Assembly (NCBI GenBank): GCA_045631225.1
Contig: JAZQUG010000044.1
Coordinates: 46,700 to 110,699 of the forward strand
Reading direction: 5' to 3'
Length of the DNA: 64,000 nt
From: Candidatus Fimenecus sp.
GTDB lineage: Bacteria > Bacillota > Clostridia > Oscillospirales > Acutalibacteraceae
Made by a program: the position numbers and the translations under genes. Under the pieces are notes generated by a model. It ran no database searches. It had not been told where the DNA came from and worked only from the letters and a program-made list of their open reading frames with translations. How positions within the stretch are numbered: position 1 is the first letter of the stretch; every line of letters begins with the position of its first letter. This document shows positions 3,816 through 53,067 of the stretch, in pieces.

Positions 3816-3944
3816 AAATTCCACTCCAAACCATATTTTATTTAGAAATTTATATATAAATATAATTATATTATTTTAATGCGATAAAGTCAACAATTAT
3901 TTAAGTACAGAATGAATAATAAATCGGAGTTTGTAGGGATAAAG

Positions 3945-3960
3945 ACAAATTATAATTTGT
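3945..3960. repeat. Perfect 16-bp palindrome ACAAATTATAATTTGT (copy 1 of a recurrent intergenic motif)
   Basis: Read directly. GGAGTTTGTAGGGAT (3926-3940) lies 4 bp to its left and resembles the ends of the elements at 25496 and 53046. Confidence 0.7.
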
Positions 3961-3993
3961 TCAAATCCCACTCACTCATCAAAACAAAAAATA

Positions 3994-4385
3994 AGACCAC
4001 AGGCACTTCCGATGGTCTTTTACGGCTGGGGAATAGGGATTCGAATTATAGCTTCACAATGCAAATCTCCATTCGCATTGTGCTCTTCGCTAAAAACAGT
4101 CCACCGGACTGTTTTCTTAACGCTCAGACCCTCCCAGGTTCGAATCCTATAACTTATCAAAAAACAAAAATAAAACCACCGGATATTTCCGATGGTCTTT
4201 TATGGCTGGGGAATAGGGATTCGAATTATAGCTTCACAATGCGAATCTCCATTCGCATTGTGCTCTTCACTAAAAACAGTCCACCGGACTGTTTTCTTAA
4301 CGCTCAGACCCTCCCGGGTTCGAATCCTATTAACTTATCAAAAAATAAAAAATAAAAACCACCGGATATTTCCGATGGTCTTTTA
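3994..4385 (-). repeat. Two tandem ~180-bp units: terminator + tRNA-Gln 3' end + 120-nt structured module
   Basis: Unit A is roughly 4011-4190 and unit B roughly 4191-4373; they are nearly identical. The 35-bp block GATGGTCTTTTAYGGCTGGGGAATAGGGATTCGAA occurs at 4011, 4191 and 4374. The module (4212-4331 in B) is closed by the inverted repeat AATAGGGATTCGAA/TTCGAATCCTATT. It contains two perfect hairpins (4235-4262 and 4273-4295). Confidence 0.8.
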
Positions 4386-4459
4386 TGGCTGGGGAATAGG
4401 GATTCGAACCCCAACAAACAGAGTCAGAGTCTGTCGTGCTACCGTTACACTATTCCCCA
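4386..4459 (-). tRNA. tRNA-Gln (anticodon CUG)
   Basis: Hand-folded cloverleaf. Acceptor stem TGGGGAA/TTCCCCA. D-arm GTGT-AACGGTA-GCAC. Anticodon arm ACAGA-CTCTGAC-TCTGT. T-arm TGGGG-TTCGAAT-CCCTA. Discriminator G plus an encoded CCA. Confidence 0.9.
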
Positions 4460-6885: not shown

Positions 6886-8262
6886 TTATTTAAGATTTGA
6901 GAATTTCTCCTTGATTTCTAATGCTCTTCCACAAGTCATTCTTCCTTCAGGACAAGCACCTACAAAACAGCTTGGACCATAGAAATTGAAAATCACAGGC
7001 TCGATTTCACGAAGCTTTTTAAGTGCATCAACAGCATATTCCTGAATTTCCCACTGAGCACGAGTACATGAACGAAGACGCATAAACAACATAAGCTGTC
7101 TTGCATTCATTGTTGTTACAATATCAAGTGTATTACCTGAAAGCTGATAATATACCAGAATTTCTTCTGATATACCAAGTTTTTTGAGTCTTTCATATTC
7201 TTCTGCAGTTTCCTTGAAAGCATTTTCATATTTTACCAGAAGCTCAGGCTTATCCTTTAAAACAGGAGGAATGATATAGCTCATTCTGTCCGTTTTTATA
7301 AGTTCAGGGATTTCGATTGACTGAATTCTGTGACGAGCAAAATGAGTGATACAAGAAAGTGAAACATTGTTAAATCTTAATGTGTAATTCACACATTCCA
7401 ATGGCCTTGGTCGTTTGCATTTAACAACTGCTTCAACGATTTTCTTTGTTGTATCCTCGTCAGAAATAATGCTTTCAATCTGTTCTGTGGCAAGGTTTTT
7501 GCCTGAAATCAAAGCATTTCTCGCAACACATTTTGCAGCATCAGGAGTATATGCTAACAATTCAACAGGAGTAGCTGTGTGTTCAGGCTTAATATCGATA
7601 AATGAAAGGTCAGGAACATCGTTCACCTGTCTTTCAGGGTTAAAACTTGCCATAATTCCGGGAGCTCGTGTCTTTGCCTGTTCATAAAGCTCAAGACCTA
7701 ATTTTTTGATTTCAGGGTAACGGGCACCTCTGCCACAAATCATAGCAGTAAGCATATTTAAAAATTCTCTGCCATTTACTGAACAGAAGAAATTACTATA
7801 AAGACAATATGGCAACACAAAACGAGCATCCTCACGAAGAACACCGTTAGCACAAAGTTCATCATAAAGTGCGAACATCTTACCCATATGCTCTTTGTAT
7901 GATTTTTCGATTTCTTCATCGTTAAATTCAGGCACATAAAATCCTGCATCACTGAAGTTTACATATCGTCTTGACTTAACTGTATATGAAGCAAGTCGGA
8001 ATTCGATAATGAACTGTTCAACAACAGCTGTAACATTCTGGAAAGCAAGCTGAAAATATGTATGCTCGACTGTACTTGTATGACCGGAAGCAGTTACTTT
8101 TCCGATAAGATTTGCATTTTTCTCTCTGTCCTGAGACTTATCCCAAATTGATAGTGCAGTACCCTCCTGAGTTGAAATTCTGCCACTTGCAGCAGTAACC
8201 TTTTCATCAGTATCTGTCATACCAATAATGAGTGCTGTGCTTTTATTGTAATCGCATACCAT
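6886..8262 (-). CDS. thyX: FAD-dependent thymidylate synthase ThyX, tandem two-domain fusion
   Basis: 458 aa, about twice the usual ThyX length. The N half has GHTSTVEH...EFRLASYTVKSRRY. The C half has THFARHRIQS (RHR motif). RBS is AGAGGGA. Confidence 0.75.
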   Translation of the reverse strand: MVCDYNKSTALIIGMTDTDEKVTAASGRISTQEGTALSIWDKSQDREKNANLIGKVTASGHTSTVEHTYFQLAFQNVTAVVEQFIIEFRLASYTVKSRRYVNFSDAGFYVPEFNDEEIEKSYKEHMGKMFALYDELCANGVLREDARFVLPYCLYSNFFCSVNGREFLNMLTAMICGRGARYPEIKKLGLELYEQAKTRAPGIMASFNPERQVNDVPDLSFIDIKPEHTATPVELLAYTPDAAKCVARNALISGKNLATEQIESIISDEDTTKKIVEAVVKCKRPRPLECVNYTLRFNNVSLSCITHFARHRIQSIEIPELIKTDRMSYIIPPVLKDKPELLVKYENAFKETAEEYERLKKLGISEEILVYYQLSGNTLDIVTTMNARQLMLFMRLRSCTRAQWEIQEYAVDALKKLREIEPVIFNFYGPSCFVGACPEGRMTCGRALEIKEKFSNLK

Positions 8263-8323: not shown

Positions 8324-8342
8324 TAACTGTTTTATCCACGGC

Positions 8343-8354
8343 AAATTATAATTT
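8343..8354. repeat. AAATTATAATTT palindrome (copy 2), between the divergent thyX and tmk promoters
   Basis: Perfect 12-mer with no attached GGGG-type element (a naked copy). Confidence 0.6.
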
Positions 8355-16071: not shown

Positions 16072-16083
16072 AAATTATAATAG
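16072..16083. repeat. Imperfect copy (AAATTATAATAG) of the palindrome, just after the trmB stop
   Basis: 10 of 12 positions match AAATTATAATTT. Confidence 0.35.
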
Positions 16084-17663: not shown

Positions 17664-17682
17664 AACTGAACAGTTCATATAA

Positions 17683-17717
17683 ATACACTTGTCATAATTG
17701 GCAGGTGTATTTTTTTA
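17683..17717 (+). terminator. Intrinsic terminator
   Basis: ATACAC...GTGTAT hairpin followed by TTTTTTT. Confidence 0.6.
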
Positions 17718-17931
17718 TCTTTTAAAAAAACTGCACAAACTTTTTGACATTTCTCACAGTTTTTCAACTTTTAATTGTTACTTATTACCATAACATGCAA
17801 TTATATTTGTACATATTGAACAAAAATACATTTTTACTTTGTGAAATATTACACACCATGCAAAATTTTTTATTCACACTTTATTTGTGCAATATTAACA
17901 AATAATTAATAATTTTATTGTGCAAAAATAC

Positions 17932-17960
17932 TTGACATTTTGAATTTTTTCTGTTATTAT
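17932..17960 (+). promoter_or_regulatory. Near-consensus SigA promoter with no annotated gene downstream
   Basis: TTGACA (17932-17937), exactly 17 nt of spacer, then TATTAT (17955-17960). Confidence 0.65.
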
Positions 17961-17992
17961 ATAGCCACAACAGAATAAAGGAGGCGGTAATA

Positions 17993-18103
17993 GTGTATAA
18001 CGCCGAACAGGAGCAGATGAAAATCGCTGTTGAGTTACTTAGCGAAAAGTTCTCAATCAAGTCAATGCTCAAAGTTGTTCAGTTACTTAGCTTCGCAGCA
18101 TAA
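17993..18103 (+). CDS. Candidate 36-aa sORF (VYNAEQEQMKIAVELLSEKFSIKSMLKVVQLLSFAA)
   Basis: Hand-found and below the track cutoff. AAAGGAGG (17977-17984) lies 8 nt before GTG 17993. Stop is TAA at 18101-18103. The peptide is predicted to be amphipathic and helical. Confidence 0.45.
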   Translation: MYNAEQEQMKIAVELLSEKFSIKSMLKVVQLLSFAA

Positions 18104-18137
18104 AAGCTGAACAAAATTTTTCCTTTAGTTTGTTTAT

Positions 18138-18234
18138 AATTTCTGTGTGGTGGTTTTTCCAATCCCCAACAAATTTTCCCTTTCCTTTTTCATAAAGTAT
18201 AACACCAATCCCTATTTTCCACTACACAGAAATT
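18138..18234 (+). ncRNA. Candidate structured RNA: 16-bp stem enclosing a 65-nt C-rich, almost G-free loop
   Basis: AATTTCTGTGTGGTGG (18138-18153) pairs with CCACTACACAGAAATT (18219-18234), with one G-U pair. The loop carries CCAATCCCC, TTTTCCCTTTCC and CCAATCCCT. Confidence 0.3.
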
Positions 18235-18308
18235 TTTAATATATAGACTTCAAACAGTGAAGTCGCTTAATTCAGGTTTTTTCATAATAATTTTTCTCAT
18301 AAAAAGAA

Positions 18309-18339
18309 GGCTGTCACCTCGGTGACAGTTTTCTTTTTT
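18309..18339. terminator. Bidirectional intrinsic terminator
   Basis: CTGTCAC-CTCG-GTGACAG hairpin with a T-run on + and an A-run upstream. Confidence 0.65.
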
Positions 18340-18360
18340 GCCTTATTAACTTTCAAAGTA

Positions 18361-18402
18361 AAAAAGGTGCTTACGCAACATCAGAAATTGCTAAAGCACC
18401 TT
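18361..18402 (-). terminator. Intrinsic terminator of the rnf operon
   Basis: AAGGTGCTT...AAGCACCTT stem, followed by a U-run on the minus strand. Confidence 0.6.
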
Positions 18403-18435
18403 TTATTTTATTCTGCACTTATCAGAGCAGTTCTG

Positions 18436-25420: not shown

Positions 25421-25495
25421 TTGGTAAATATATTGAAATAATGGCAAATAAATGATACAAAATGACGATAAAGCAAACTTTCCGTTCGACAAATA

Positions 25496-25716
25496 GGAGT
25501 TTATCGGGATGAATAATGAAGTATTGCTACGCAATATGAAGTAATCTACGATTATTAAGTATTTATCGTTGATAAATATGAAGTAAAGTAAATCCTTTCA
25601 TATGCCGTAAGGCATACTTCATAGCAACGCTACTTCATATCCGTCAGGATACTTCATAAATCAAACGGATTTACTTCATTGTGGCGAAGCCACATCTCCC
25701 CGATAAATTATAATTT
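25496..25716. mobile_element. MITE/REP-like non-coding element with an internal iteron-like array (E1)
   Basis: Terminal inverted repeat TTTATCGGG (25500-25508) / CCCCGATAAA (25698-25707). Seven ATGAAGTA/TACTTCAT octamers inside. Ends in AAATTATAATTT (25705-25716). Confidence 0.5.
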
Positions 25717-25724
25717 ACATACAC

Positions 25725-25757
25725 AAACAACAAAAGCAGGGTCGAAACCCTGCTTTG
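25725..25757 (-). terminator. Intrinsic terminator of the M23 peptidase gene
   Basis: AAAGCAGGGT-CGAA-ACCCTGCTTT hairpin at 25733-25756, followed by a T-rich tract on the minus strand. Confidence 0.7.
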
Positions 25758-25775
25758 TTAAGTTGATATATTTAA

Positions 25776-27959
25776 TTAATAGTGTGCTACACCGCAACCA
25801 CAAGTTTTATTTGCTCTAAAAATCTTTTGGAAGAAAAGTGCAAACTTGAAGAAGAAATTTGCTATACCCTTCTTATGACAATTGCAATCACAATTCTTTG
25901 TTGGATCAAGAAGCTCGTTATCACTATCGCAATATCCGTCATCATTATTATCGTTATGTCCTATTGCATCAACATAATCACCAACATAGCTATATCCACA
26001 AGAGCATGTATAAGTTGTATAGCCCTGTGCTGTACAAGTTGGAGCTGTTACAACAGTCTGATAATTATGTCCTGTTGCAGGAATTTCTTCACTCTTAAGT
26101 TCTTCACCACAATAATAACAATCCTGAACCTTAACACCAGCTTCTTCACAAGTAGGCTCAACAATTACTAACCATTCTCCATTAACATGGTCAGCAGTAG
26201 GAATTTCTTCTACATCAATAACTTCACCACATACTGTACACTTTTGGAGTTTCATTCCTTCTGTTTTGCACGTTGCTTCAGTTGTTGTTTCCCACGCACC
26301 TGCTGTATGTCCTGTTGCTGAAACCTCTTCAATTGCAATTATTTCACCACAAACAGTACATTTCTTTTGACGAAGTCCGTCAGTAGTACATGTTTCTTTT
26401 TCAACAGTTTCCCACACACCTGCTGTGTGTTCTGTCATTGGAATTTCTTTTTCAGCAATTATTTCGCCACAAGTTGTACAATTTAATCTTGATGAACCGA
26501 CTGTAGTGCATGTAGCAGGTGTTACAACTGTCCACTCTCCTGCAGTATGTACATTCTGACTCCACACAGCATAAAGTGTAATTGTAGCATCATTTGATGC
26601 TGTAAGATTCTTCACAGTCTGCTTATCTGTATATTTAGCAACAGTAGCTGTTGGATTTGTTGACCAACCAAGGAAAGTATAGCCTGTTCTTGTAAATGCA
26701 TTCGCATTTAATGCTTTCGCTGTGTCGTATGTATGACTTGAAGCAGACATTGTACCGCTACCACCATTTGCATCATACGCTATTGTATATGTCTTTGCCT
26801 GCCAGATAGCATACAGTGTTCTTGAACAGCTACCGTCCTTGATACCTGATTTTATGTCTGTTGGTAAAAGAGTTGTATCATTCTGGTCAAATACAGTTCC
26901 ACCTGATGATTTTGTTCCCCAACCCATAAAGGTATAACCAGTTTTTTTGAGCCCAAATGACTTTGGATTAAATAAGCCTGTATCCTTTGCTTTGTTATAT
27001 GCCCAGCTCTGAACAAATTTATCATTATTTTTATATATTAATCCGTTGTTTAATGAGAAATTCTCTTCTGTAACCTCGCCACCATTAGCATTATAGTAAA
27101 CAGACAATGTGTTAGCTTCCCATATTGCATATAATGTGATTGTCTGGTCACCATCACCTATTGTAGGACACAATGTCTTTGCAGTCATAGGGTCGTTTTG
27201 GTTGTAAATTGTTCCACCACTGGACTTTGTTCCCCAACCTACAAATGTGTAACCTTCTTTAGAAAGTCCAAATGTTGTGCGATTGTAAAGTCCACTTTCA
27301 CATATTGTGCCATCAACAATTTCCTGTGTGAAAACTTTATCATTTGATTTTCTACATACAACACCTGAACCATTCAAATAGTACTTTTCGTGAGAAGTAT
27401 CTATTTCTCCACCATTTGCATCGTATTTGATTGAGAGTGTGTATTTAATTTCATCTACATATGTTTCATTTTTAGCATTAACATCTCCATGCCAAGGGTC
27501 TGTTGTATTAATCTGGAAATGAAGATGGTTGCCTGATGAATTACCTGTGCTACCAACTTTACCGATTTTTTGTCCCACAACAACTTTAGCTCCCTTGGTT
27601 ACATTTGAAGGAATACTACCAGCCTTCATATGTGCATACTGATACCATCTACCATCTGTACCACGAATAATAACACCTGTTCCGAAGCCATCACAATCTC
27701 CACGACTTCCATAATGTTTCTCCGTACACTTGTACACATTTGTTACTGTGCCACCTATTGCAGCAACAATATCAGCACCGCCAATAGAACTATCCGCAAT
27801 ATCAATACCTGGATGACTACTGCTATATCCTTGTGATAATGTTTTATGTCCTGGAACCGGCCATAATAATGTTGTTCCTGCACTTGCTGTGATACTTGAC
27901 ATTGGGATAATTGAAATTATCATTATCAATGCCAAGAAAAGTGATAAAGCTTTTTTCAT
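25776..27959 (-). CDS. Secreted M23 (LytM-type) metallopeptidase with Listeria-Bacteroides-type repeats, five Cys-rich 40-aa repeats and a Cys/His-rich amphipathic tail
   Basis: Signal peptide MKKALSLFLALIMI...ASA. M23 motifs HPGIDI and GNHLHFQ. Three GYTF.GW repeats. Repeats of type HTAG.WE....CT..G......C..CGE. ATG at 27959 has an AAAGGAAG RBS. Confidence 0.85.
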   Translation of the reverse strand: MKKALSLFLALIMIISIIPMSSITASAGTTLLWPVPGHKTLSQGYSSSHPGIDIADSSIGGADIVAAIGGTVTNVYKCTEKHYGSRGDCDGFGTGVIIRGTDGRWYQYAHMKAGSIPSNVTKGAKVVVGQKIGKVGSTGNSSGNHLHFQINTTDPWHGDVNAKNETYVDEIKYTLSIKYDANGGEIDTSHEKYYLNGSGVVCRKSNDKVFTQEIVDGTICESGLYNRTTFGLSKEGYTFVGWGTKSSGGTIYNQNDPMTAKTLCPTIGDGDQTITLYAIWEANTLSVYYNANGGEVTEENFSLNNGLIYKNNDKFVQSWAYNKAKDTGLFNPKSFGLKKTGYTFMGWGTKSSGGTVFDQNDTTLLPTDIKSGIKDGSCSRTLYAIWQAKTYTIAYDANGGSGTMSASSHTYDTAKALNANAFTRTGYTFLGWSTNPTATVAKYTDKQTVKNLTASNDATITLYAVWSQNVHTAGEWTVVTPATCTTVGSSRLNCTTCGEIIAEKEIPMTEHTAGVWETVEKETCTTDGLRQKKCTVCGEIIAIEEVSATGHTAGAWETTTEATCKTEGMKLQKCTVCGEVIDVEEIPTADHVNGEWLVIVEPTCEEAGVKVQDCYYCGEELKSEEIPATGHNYQTVVTAPTCTAQGYTTYTCSCGYSYVGDYVDAIGHNDNNDDGYCDSDNELLDPTKNCDCNCHKKGIANFFFKFALFFQKIFRANKTCGCGVAHY
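25956..26549 (-). repeat. Five tandem ~120-bp coding repeats (Cys-rich modules) inside the M23 gene
   Basis: Protein-level periodicity of about 40 aa, from HTAGEWTVV... to ...DAIGH. Confidence 0.7.
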
Positions 27960-27978
27960 AAATATTCTTCCTTTCATT

Positions 27979-28056
27979 TTATAACATTACGTTATAAAAT
28001 TGATTATATAACAATTTGTTATGTAAGTCAATATAGCATTTTGTTATGTGACATAA
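27979..28056. promoter_or_regulatory. Three inverted-repeat operators between the M23 peptidase and XRE genes
   Basis: TTATAAC-ATTAC-GTTATAA (27979-27997), ATAACAA-T-TTGTTAT (28008-28022) and TTATGT-G-ACATAA (28044-28056). All share GTTAT/ATAAC half-sites. Confidence 0.55.
28003..28031 (-). promoter_or_regulatory. SigA-type promoter of the M23 peptidase gene
   Basis: On the minus strand: TTGACT (28031-28026), 17-nt spacer, TATAAT (28008-28003). The middle operator lies almost entirely within the spacer, overlapping the -10 by one base. Confidence 0.6.
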
Positions 28057-28075
28057 TAGCCTTGAGGTGTTTTGT

Positions 28076-28288
28076 ATGTTGCATAACAGATTACGAGATT
28101 TGCGTGAAGACTCTGACCTTTTACAAAAAGATATTGCAAATATTCTGAATTGCTCTCAGGTTTGTTATTCATATTATGAAAATGGATTACGTGACATCCC
28201 AACACAGGTTTTAATCAAACTTGCAAACTATTATGACGTTTCAATCGACTATATTCTTTGTCAGACCGACAATCCTGAACGATTATAA
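28076..28288 (+). CDS. XRE-family helix-turn-helix transcriptional regulator
   Basis: 70 aa with an HTH_3 pattern (LRDLREDSDLLQKDIANILNCSQVCYSYYENG). GAGG RBS 8 nt before ATG 28076. Confidence 0.85.
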   Translation: MLHNRLRDLREDSDLLQKDIANILNCSQVCYSYYENGLRDIPTQVLIKLANYYDVSIDYILCQTDNPERL

Positions 28289-28343
28289 TAAACAAATAAA
28301 TAAAAAATCGCAGTTTTTCGGGATATTAATATGGAACAACATA

Positions 28344-28570
28344 TTTTGTAGGGGACGATGCCCACATCGTCCCGTTCCAATGCCTGCCATTAAACTACAT
28401 CGGATCACTGTGGGCAGCGACCCCTACATTGCGAAGACCCCGACAAATTATAATTTATCTTCATGGAGATTAAAATAATTGTTGATTTTTTATAGTATGA
28501 TGATAAAATAAATTATACAAGAAACTGACACGGGTCGATGTAGGCATCGACCCTTACAAAATTATAATTT
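28344..28570. mobile_element. Nested REP/MITE-like hairpin elements with about 30-bp imperfect terminal inverted repeats
   Basis: Left end: TTTTGTAG + GGGACGATG-CCCA-CATCGTCCC (28344-28373). Right end: GGGTCGATG-TAGG-CATCGACCC + TTACAAAA (28532-28561). Internal inverted copy TGTGGGCAGCGACCCCTACA (28409-28428). Two AAATTATAATTT copies (28445 and 28559). Confidence 0.55.
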
Positions 28571-33573: not shown

Positions 33574-33798
33574 TTATCAATTTCGCCTTTTCTTTGTGTA
33601 TTTTGCACATATATCTCTGCTTTGATTTGTATATATATTACAACAACAAAAAGATGAAGTCAATAAAATGCCAGTAAAATTTTAACTTTCTACCTTTGGT
33701 ACAAATTTACAAATTAGCACAGTTGTTTTTGTGCAAAATGACATATAAAAATAAGGTGAGAGCAAGCCCTCACTTTATTTTTTTAAATTTTAGTTTAT

Positions 33799-41119: not shown

Positions 41120-41132
41120 TTAAATATAAAAT

Positions 41133-41165
41133 AAGGTGAGAGTAAAATCTCACCTTTATTTTTTA
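41133..41165 (+). terminator. Intrinsic terminator after GH3
   Basis: AAGGTGAGA-GTAAAA-TCTCACCTT followed by TTATTTTTT. Confidence 0.75.
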
Positions 41166-41189
41166 CATACAAAGCTAAAAAAGACACGA

Positions 41190-45015: not shown

Positions 45016-45031
45016 ACAGATTATAATTTGT
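45016..45031. repeat. ACAGATTATAATTTGT, a one-mismatch copy of the 16-bp palindrome
   Basis: Read directly. Intergenic, with no attached GGGG-type element. Confidence 0.5.
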
Positions 45032-52741: not shown

Positions 52742-53046
52742 AAATTATAATTTGTAGGGGAGAAATGAAGTGCAAAATGTAAAACGCAAAGTGCAAAGTG
52801 TCGGAACTGCGTTGCTGATTTATAATTGGCTCCCCTTGTCAGGGTGCGGGTGTCCGGTGGACACCTCTGCGAAGCAGAAGCACCGATCGAACCGGCAGGT
52901 GAGACTTAGCTGTCAACGAAGTTGACTGAGGGGTAGTCAAAAACATTGATTTTATTTATCTCTCCCTCCGTCAAAACCTGCGGTTTCGCCACCTCCCTCG
53001 TCAGAGGGAGGCAGGAGTACGCCATCTATTCACCCCGATAAACTCC
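52742..53046. mobile_element. MITE/REP-like non-coding element (E2), same family as 25496-25716, inverted orientation
   Basis: Starts AAATTATAATTTGTAGGGGAGAAATGAAGT and ends CACCCCGATAAACTCC. GC-rich hairpins at 52849-52865, 52912-52926 and 52992-53011. GCGAAGC at 52869-52875. Confidence 0.5.
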
Positions 53047-53067
53047 AATTTAATAAATAAAAAAAAC

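Follow-up and report, generated by a model that had tools for sequence, protein, structure and literature searches.

What is the AT-rich, self-palindromic 12-mer AAATTATAATTT that recurs between the genes of this locus: a target into which mobile elements insert, the terminus of such elements, or a boundary site bound by a protein? The window (i.e., the whole 64-kb stretch of DNA that was analyzed) is a 37% GC segment from an anaerobic Firmicute, Candidatus Fimenecus, a member of Clostridia, with an Rnf operon, sugar-utilization genes and one tRNA-Gln. Perfect copies of the 12-mer start at 3947, 8343, 25705, 28445, 28559 and 52742, exactly the six positions named in the original prediction, which had guessed that such a sequence should occur well under once per 64 kb. 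The computed expectation is 0.08 copies and not one of 100 shuffles reached six, confirming for the window the enrichment that the prediction had proposed to check against shuffled controls. The perfect 16-mer that it had described around AAATTATAATTT is likewise present at 3945-3960, as are the extended forms CCCCGAYAAATTATAATTT and AAATTATAATTTGTAGGGG. The claim that all copies are intergenic holds for the six perfect ones when set against the window ORFs; two previously unlisted one-mismatch copies lie inside genes. There are three such one-mismatch copies in all (45018, 53867 and 57822) as against about 1.3 expected by chance, and the copy at 16072 has two mismatches; as the one-mismatch count is at chance level, the near-copies at 45018 and 16072, listed in the original prediction, carry no weight on their own. 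The intergenic region orthologous to the 45018 site in one related locus (L098) contains a complete element about 35 nt away; a candidate 'A-end-like' similarity at 45018 (repeat family D12) proved to be conserved GntR gene promoter sequence in L098 and not an element end.

In every context in the window, the 12-mer forms the outer part of a polar motif, AAATTATAATTT-RT(C/A)GGG; some hundreds of bases off, and facing it, lies AAATnGGAGTTT-RTMGGG, the second motif. The conserved unit is not the 16-bp palindrome as originally proposed but a polar 20-mer, in which AAATTATAATTT is followed by RTCGGGAT on one side only. We show that a family of short palindromic elements without ORFs has AAATTATAATTT as the outermost 12 nt of one terminus, the B end (AAATTATAATTT-RTCGGGAT); when inverted, the opposite terminus, the A end (AAATTGGAGTTT-RTMGGGAT), matches the B end imperfectly. 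The A-end motif GGAGTTTNTNGGGR occurs four times in the window as against 0.43 expected. Altogether, the window holds four A..B shells and two decayed B-end remnants, roughly one shell or remnant per 8-16 kb, listed here with the doubtful one-mismatch copy:

3921-3958, plus strand: cargo-less shell; A end AAATCGGAGTTTGTAGGGAT at 3921-3940, joined directly to the B end AAAGAC-AAATTATAATTT at 3941-3958, with the 12-mer at 3947-3958.
8339-8354, minus strand: solo remnant of a B end, CGGC-AAATTATAATTT, whose inner sequence TATCCACGGC is degenerate; nhmmer B-end match 8354-8339, E = 0.018.
25491-25716, plus strand: element E1, 226 bp; A end 25491-25510, B end 25697-25716, 12-mer 25705-25716.
28305-28456, plus strand: element E28, 152 bp; A end AAATCGCAGTTTTTCGGGAT, B-end 12-mer 28445-28456.
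28532-28570, plus strand: element remnant; REP hairpin GGGTCGATG-TAGG-CATCGACCC, followed by TTAC and A-AAATTATAATTT; 12-mer 28559-28570.
45018-45029, no strand assigned: one-mismatch copy AGATTATAATTT, of doubtful family membership as the match is at chance level; B-end HMM E = 6.6.
52742-53051, minus strand: element E2, 310 bp; B end 52742-52761, 12-mer 52742-52753, A end 53032-53051.

In the cargo-less shell, nhmmer matches the A end at 3921-3943 (E = 2e-5) and the B end at 3958-3944, and the two end motifs that had been described as adjoining at 3926-3960 are indeed back to back within it. The remnant at 8339-8354 lies in the divergent thyX/tmk intergenic region, lacks an A end and bears a GRY signature on its inner side; thus, the 8343 copy, formerly taken as a 'naked', element-free site, retains inner B-end sequence and is a remnant, and the 28559 copy likewise keeps its REP. 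E1 is situated between a peptidase terminator and the apbE promoter region, and E28 between the stop codon of an HTH gene and the alcohol dehydrogenase (ADH) promoter. E2, whose A-to-B direction follows the minus strand, separates the stop codon of the upstream ORF from that ORF's terminator. The span 28344-28570, previously treated as a single element, resolves into the complete element at 28305-28456 and the remnant at 28532-28570, with the predicted ADH promoter (TTGATT at 28482-28487 and TAAAAT at 28504-28509, spacing 16), which is conserved, downstream of the E28 B end. Since this promoter lies between E28 and the remnant, the 28559 copy sits in the ADH 5′ UTR, and the AAGGA ribosome-binding site follows the remnant after 4 nt.

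The two ends can be compared using the consensus sequences from 33 complete elements, AAATTGGAGTTTRTMGGGAT for the A end and AAATTATAATTTRTCGGGAT for the B end, which are terminal inverted repeats identical at 16 of 20 positions, with differences at positions 6, 7 and 9. They are asymmetric in sequence, with GGAG in one as against ATAA in the other, and share an end tetranucleotide of the form RTMG that comes in four variants (GTAG, GTCG, ATCG and ATAG), often as GTAG. Immediately outside the element, R followed by T is preferred at both the A end (86% and 79%, respectively) and the B end (88% and 42%). Each end thereby becomes a 16-nt near-palindrome, which accounts for the perfect 16-mer of the original prediction.

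A scan of species-representative genomes (one per species) with the pattern CCCNANAAATTATAATTT recovered at least 115 loci. Among the matches listed, Candidatus Fimenecus and related uncultured clostridial MAGs have many loci per genome, and other taxa only single unpaired matches, which we read as chance. More than 30 times in the Fimenecus-like loci, an A end is oriented toward a B end located 130-450 bp from it, and complete A..A pairs are absent; the set, which first comprised 33 elements, reached at least 56 distinct ones once a metagenome scan was added. These 56 or more A..B elements, from Ca. Fimenecus and other clostridial MAGs as well as metagenome contigs, span 67-451 bp without an ORF of their own (38-451 bp for the family overall, with a median of about 183 bp), and are multi-copy at non-homologous loci in many genomes. 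For example, full-length E1-type copies, 88-91% identical, are found at the non-homologous loci L013 (2858-3066) and L247 (1343-1570), and type-1 units are near-identical at many different loci of one MAG. Hence, of the interpretations offered at the outset, the terminus of a non-autonomous MITE/REP-like family is the one upheld by over 50 ORF-less A..B elements at non-homologous loci. In viral contigs, 84 loci matched the B-end or A-end patterns with no paired element among them; being single unpaired matches, these are chance hits. The plasmid collection gave no match, Rfam 15 gave nothing at the gathering threshold in the window and nothing with E ≤ 1 over E2, and literature searches on the 12-mer and on Fimenecus repeats returned nothing relevant. 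The kind of element, namely REP/REPIN, BIME/BOX-like mosaic repeats and MITEs, is already well known; what appears undescribed is this family, with its asymmetric self-palindromic ends and host lineage. A terminator is often found 6-45 nt from an element, which may precede or follow it in either orientation, and convergent genes frequently flank the elements. A dedicated boundary site, as put forward at the outset, is not supported, the elements being just intergenic and often near terminators.

Exactly one side bears the inner signature, either (CCC)GAY or a degenerate version (RY), in 55 of the 56 perfect 12-mers in Fimenecus-like DNA, and one of the 56 is common to two elements. This one-sidedness, along with the inner sequence kept by solo copies, identifies the 12-mer as an element end; the sequence retained shows the solo 12-mers to be decayed B ends and not virgin sites. 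A dedicated pre-existing insertion target, as implied by the earlier statement that the site also exists without elements, is thus not supported. What survives of that idea is its weak form, given a small number of abutting elements in which the 12-mer is shared or repeated: there are arrays with single 12-mers between adjoining modules in L095, L054, L050/L057 and L035, which might reflect a weak preference for insertion at an existing end. A few elements, as in L095 and L051, bear a B-type or intermediate 12-mer at each end.

Inside these ends, the interiors are heterogeneous, modular and nested. One type of cargo consists of head-to-head GC-rich hairpins with a GTAG tag, typified by the REP dimer of E28, which has GTAGGGG at 28348 on the plus strand and 28421 on the minus strand (GTAGGGGACGATGCCCACATCGTCCC at 28348 ... 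CCCCTAC). GTAG-tagged REPs of this kind are numerous in the loci, and the REPIN-like inverted pair is also found in L077, L102, L108 and L112. Other types include the GGCTCCCTCTGACGAGGGAGC type, the GTGCAAAATGCAAAACGC type, the E1 type with mini-hairpins tagged ATGAAGTA/TACTTCAT, and a GTCATTCTGAGG...CCTCAGAATGAC module; the cargo of E2 comprises several GC-rich hairpin modules. In one MAG, the GTCATTCTGAGG...CCTCAGAATGAC module is almost invariant between copies and the approximately 30 nt of shell on each side are much more diverged, implying that a young module is nested in older shells; another module is located inside a REP loop. The elements fold far better than shuffled sequence, with E1 forming a long hairpin (z about -5), and in 28 of the 33 elements it is the A-to-B strand that folds more stably. 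The mismatches between the ends become G.T wobbles on the A-to-B strand only, an asymmetry that counts as one inherited feature and not as many independent observations. With its visible nesting and an empty shell, the family offers a good natural system for studying how palindromic elements pick hairpin apices as targets.

Two further features of the cargo were observed. In E1 (25511-25696), the tag ATGAAGTA is found in the mini-hairpins of the left half and TACTTCAT in those of the right half, a REP-like layout in which another tag takes the place of GTAG. One Fimenecus MAG has almost identical copies of a roughly 120-nt module bounded by inverted ends of its own, GTCATTCTGAGGAACGAAGTGACGAAGAATCTC ... 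GAGATTCTTCGCTACGCTCAGAATGAC (L011, L055, L062, L072, L091 and L109); the module also occurs in L204, L058, L074 and L098. All the copies examined lie within a shell or REP dimer, and the module has the appearance of a younger MITE targeting hairpin apices.

The turnover of elements among relatives is best seen upstream of ADH, where eight relatives, whose contigs were taken via alcohol dehydrogenase homologues (85-91% identical), provide an unbiased sample. At a distance of 25-28 nt upstream of the -35 hexamer, the E28 B end together with its flank is present in the window, L117/L118, L204, L119 (as a solo copy) and L205 (with one mismatch), and absent from L116, L206 and L207. The cargo at this site differs with each carrier (a REP dimer, the GGCTTCTCC type or a type-1 module), as do the A ends. 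The 5′ UTR remnant (28532-28570) is present in L117 and L118, and both its REP and its 12-mer are missing from L116, L119, L204, L205 and L206; L207 has the REP in the 5′ UTR and lacks exactly the 12-mer. The suggested comparison of orthologous intergenic regions thus bore fruit in the form of both presence/absence and cargo differences, in a dataset of fragmented MAGs that are 10-20% apart in sequence and include no clean filled-versus-empty pair. Elsewhere, a B end that stays fixed as cargo and A end vary is likewise seen in L015/L112, L045/L109 and L048/L101, and the locus orthologous to that of E2 (L087, 81% identical) has the B end in the same place with related cargo; most orthologous pairs with a fixed B end were, however, ascertained by that very pattern.

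The adjoining segment at 25717-28304, coding for an M23/InlB-repeat peptidase and a small XRE-type HTH protein and bounded by two directly oriented B ends, is itself variable. It is present in the window, L117 and L207 and absent from L116, L119, L204 and L206, and in relatives without it apbE lies directly beside the alcohol dehydrogenase gene; the next homologue of the window peptidase is only 67% identical. Additionally, L119 has a palindromic insertion of about 135 bp (7960-8093; TCAGCGAGATAGTTTTTCGTCAGAGCCGTCAAAAAC ...) between aminotransferase and aldolase genes that is absent from the window, L116 and L117. As it has no 12-mer, this insertion belongs to a different small repeat family in the same genus.

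We propose, with a probability of roughly 0.55, that these are non-autonomous MITE/REPIN-like elements mobilized in trans, most likely by a tyrosine HUH transposase of the RAYT/TIRYT-like kind related to IS200/IS605. The substrate of such an enzyme would be the A-to-B strand as folded single-stranded DNA, in which it would recognize the ends along with the GTAG-tagged hairpins. New palindromic modules would land preferentially in the apex of resident hairpins, building 'Russian-doll' elements in which the oldest, outermost layer would be the shell with the 12-mer, and TATAAT and GGAG would be parts of the end-recognition sequence rather than a working promoter or ribosome-binding site. We favor an HUH enzyme on account of the lack of duplications, the GTAG-tagged REP dimers, the GTAG-like end tetranucleotides, the apex nesting and the one-strand G.T pairing. 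There are precedents for several of these aspects: REP dimers lie within longer palindromes in Anabaena and Halothiobacillus (PMC3733652), self-complementary TIR families flank Y1 transposases (PMC3733652), and TnpAREP acts on single-stranded folded REP hairpins with a conserved motif before them (PMC8266576).

No target-site duplication of 2-12 bp abuts the ends, with flank pairs having on average 7.3 matches per 10 positions as against 7.2 in shuffled controls. Repeats of GATTAWAATAA around E28 and TTTTATTTRTT around E2 were considered and set aside because they neither abut the ends nor are general, and an AATT duplication was ruled out given that A-end position 5, which is T or C, shows no covariation with the B end. 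Insertion of the IS200/IS605 type into the lagging strand predicts an orientation bias. We found none, using two proxies for replication direction, with ratios of 9:11 relative to the majority gene strand and 10:12 relative to GC skew. Nor is there covariation of the A and B ends at variable positions 13 (Fisher p = 0.57) or 15 (Fisher p = 0.64); hence, pairing of the two ends is not demonstrably selected. The A..B elements contain no ORF between their ends: two candidates for autonomous elements, identified as long A..B or B..B pairs in L084 (1.7 kb) and L035 (2.6 kb), each turned out to be two elements flanking ordinary lipoprotein or surface-protein genes. There is no ORF with HUH plus YxxxNP motifs among the 1710 ORFs of the collected loci, no multi-copy ORF family near the elements, and no parent IS encoding a transposase with the same ends in about 1.3 Mb of related loci. 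A transposase flanked by the same termini, which the original prediction had proposed to seek, was thus found neither between the ends nor beside the elements in this DNA, and the mobilizing enzyme is accordingly one that we purely infer.

These results also bear on other accounts of the elements. A classical MITE, with 20-bp imperfect TIRs bound by a DDE transposase from a full-length IS elsewhere and moved by double-stranded cut-and-paste, would suit TIRs identical at 16 of 20 positions on small, ORF-less elements dispersed between genes in both orientations equally, and ends that lack covariation suit separate protein recognition of each end. However, nearly all DDE families produce a target-site duplication, and none of any length was found at these ends; no parent IS with the ends AAATTGGAGTTT.../...AAATTATAATTT was seen in about 1.3 Mb of related DNA, and the GTAG-tagged REP cargo and hairpin-apex nesting point to structure-specific enzymes, so that we regard such an origin as somewhat unlikely. 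A very different role is that of TATAAT as a bidirectional -10 element on both strands, or of the GGAG end as a ribosome-binding site, such that the elements, in spreading it, would rewire the expression of neighboring genes. The hexamer is perfect, an ATG follows GGAG after 9 nt in many copies, and promoter-bearing ends are known from Correia elements. Against this, a -35 match (at least 4/6 at 16-18 nt) accompanies the hexamer in only 4% and 10% of cases in the two directions, as compared to a background of 15%, so that a promoter role for TATAAT is not supported; the extended -10 TG is absent, ADH has its separate, conserved TTGATT-16-TAAAAT promoter downstream of the B end, numerous copies point toward the 3′ ends of genes or have convergent genes on their two sides, and the ORFs after GGAG...ATG run to 4-10 codons and are not conserved. 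We find this account very unlikely.

The fixed B ends described above invite the thought that the 12-mer with its RTCGGG arm is functional in itself, as a recombinase crossover or a site for a nucleoid or regulatory protein, with cassette-like exchange of non-coding modules at a resident anchor in place of transposition. It would be in keeping with the ADH-upstream B end and flank that are conserved as cargo and A end change from relative to relative, the same pattern in L015/L112, L045/L109 and L048/L101, a 12-mer perfectly kept amid diverged flanks, the single 12-mers between adjoining modules (L095, L054, L050/L057 and L035), and the peptidase-HTH segment as an indel bounded by two directly oriented B ends. 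On the other hand, a 12-mer common to two elements is rare (1/56), it was the pattern itself that brought most of the orthologous pairs to light, a tyrosine-recombinase site does not normally have a 4-6 nt core and a single conserved arm, there is no association with a recombinase gene, and nested insertion followed by decay is a simpler account of cargo turnover; on this balance a self-sufficient anchor seems distinctly unlikely. Conservation of the 12-mer at orthologous sites with diverged flanks could alternatively reflect a host function. More specifically, the B-end palindrome might be a resident attachment site at which a dedicated recombinase exchanges whole non-coding hairpin modules, in an integron-like or dif-module-like cassette system. 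This would explain the fixed B end and flank, the swapped cargo and A end, and the single 12-mers between modules, and we deem it highly improbable.

On insertion, Correia (NEMIS) and RUP elements give rise to a TA duplication, and a DDE partner is known or suspected for them. The Fimenecus elements resemble these MITEs (PMC3184786, PMC10969869) in their size range (about 100-300 bp in the latter), TIRs, intergenic placement, often near terminators or promoters, and promoter-like hexamers in the ends, but differ in having no duplication and no sign of promoter action by TATAAT. With the BOX elements of S. pneumoniae (PMC3049150) and the BIMEs of E. coli, they share an organization of conserved end modules around internal modules of variable number and kind, folding of the whole to a long hairpin, an intergenic location, frequent transcription with neighboring genes and a mobilizing enzyme that is likewise not known; unlike in these, the cargo is far more heterogeneous and visibly nested, and sequence similarity is neither expected nor seen, there being no Rfam or database match.

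The closest parallels to the HUH-mobilized elements that we propose are with the REP/REPIN-RAYT systems (PMC3116915, PMC3733652, PMC8266576). As in these, the cargo includes GC-rich, GTAG-tagged hairpins arranged head-to-head as in REPINs, the shell ends carry a GTAG-like RTMG beside GGG, and the elements are intergenic, of high copy number, clustered or nested, and without target duplication; the REP dimers of Anabaena and Halothiobacillus are also inside longer palindromes (PMC3733652). In contrast to these systems, the Fimenecus ends are extended by an AT-rich, self-palindromic 12-mer and show asymmetry (GGAG vs ATAA), the position of GTAG in the ends is variable, no RAYT gene was found in the collected loci, and the host is a Firmicute. 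A 2013 survey recorded GTAG repeats in phyla including Proteobacteria, Cyanobacteria, Chloroflexi and the PVC group, and its text makes no mention of Firmicutes or Clostridia (PMC3733652); the present family extends GTAG-tagged REP-like elements to Clostridia. The TIRtrons, or TIRYT, are moderately abundant inverted-repeat families, some of them self-complementary and occurring as dimers or clusters, which are thought to be mobilized by the Y1 transposases that they flank (PMC3733652). The Fimenecus elements have similar self-complementary inverted-repeat ends, but no Y1 gene flanked by them was seen and their sequences are unrelated to the GGGGWSAS-type TIRs.

An abundant repeat family is now defined in an uncultured gut genus that serves as a microbiome marker. 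Such repeats break assemblies and seed indels, as exemplified by the peptidase-HTH segment flanked by two of them, and some copies lie in UTRs of metabolic genes, making them relevant to MAG quality, strain typing and expression models.

Several other features of the window were noted. Beside the tRNA-Gln gene (4386-4459, minus strand) are two tandem 180-bp units (3981-4340). Each unit terminates in the final approximately 23 nt of the tRNA-Gln gene (TTCGAATCCCTATTCCCCAGCCA, minus strand), and within it are an 11-bp hairpin and a second GGTTCGAATCC-like motif; ARAGORN and Rfam both did not call the units tRNAs. Similar units, 80-88% identical, adjoin shell elements in the metagenome loci L216 (6119-6227) and L230 (1959-2117), and the units may be att-site remnants or another repeat family. 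Upstream of rnfB, an AT-rich region of about 770 bp (17664-18435) is devoid of ORFs reaching 65 aa, apart from the flanking genes, and matches nothing in Rfam at the gathering threshold. Two 41-nt terminator-like hairpins (AAAATAAGGTGAGAG...CTCAC...TTTTT; 33748-33788 and 41128-41168), mutually 80% identical, are located downstream of unrelated genes. Finally, the ThyX homologue at 6886-8262 (minus strand) is, at 458 aa, about twice the usual length and has two matched Thy1 stretches, which suggests a tandem-domain ThyX.
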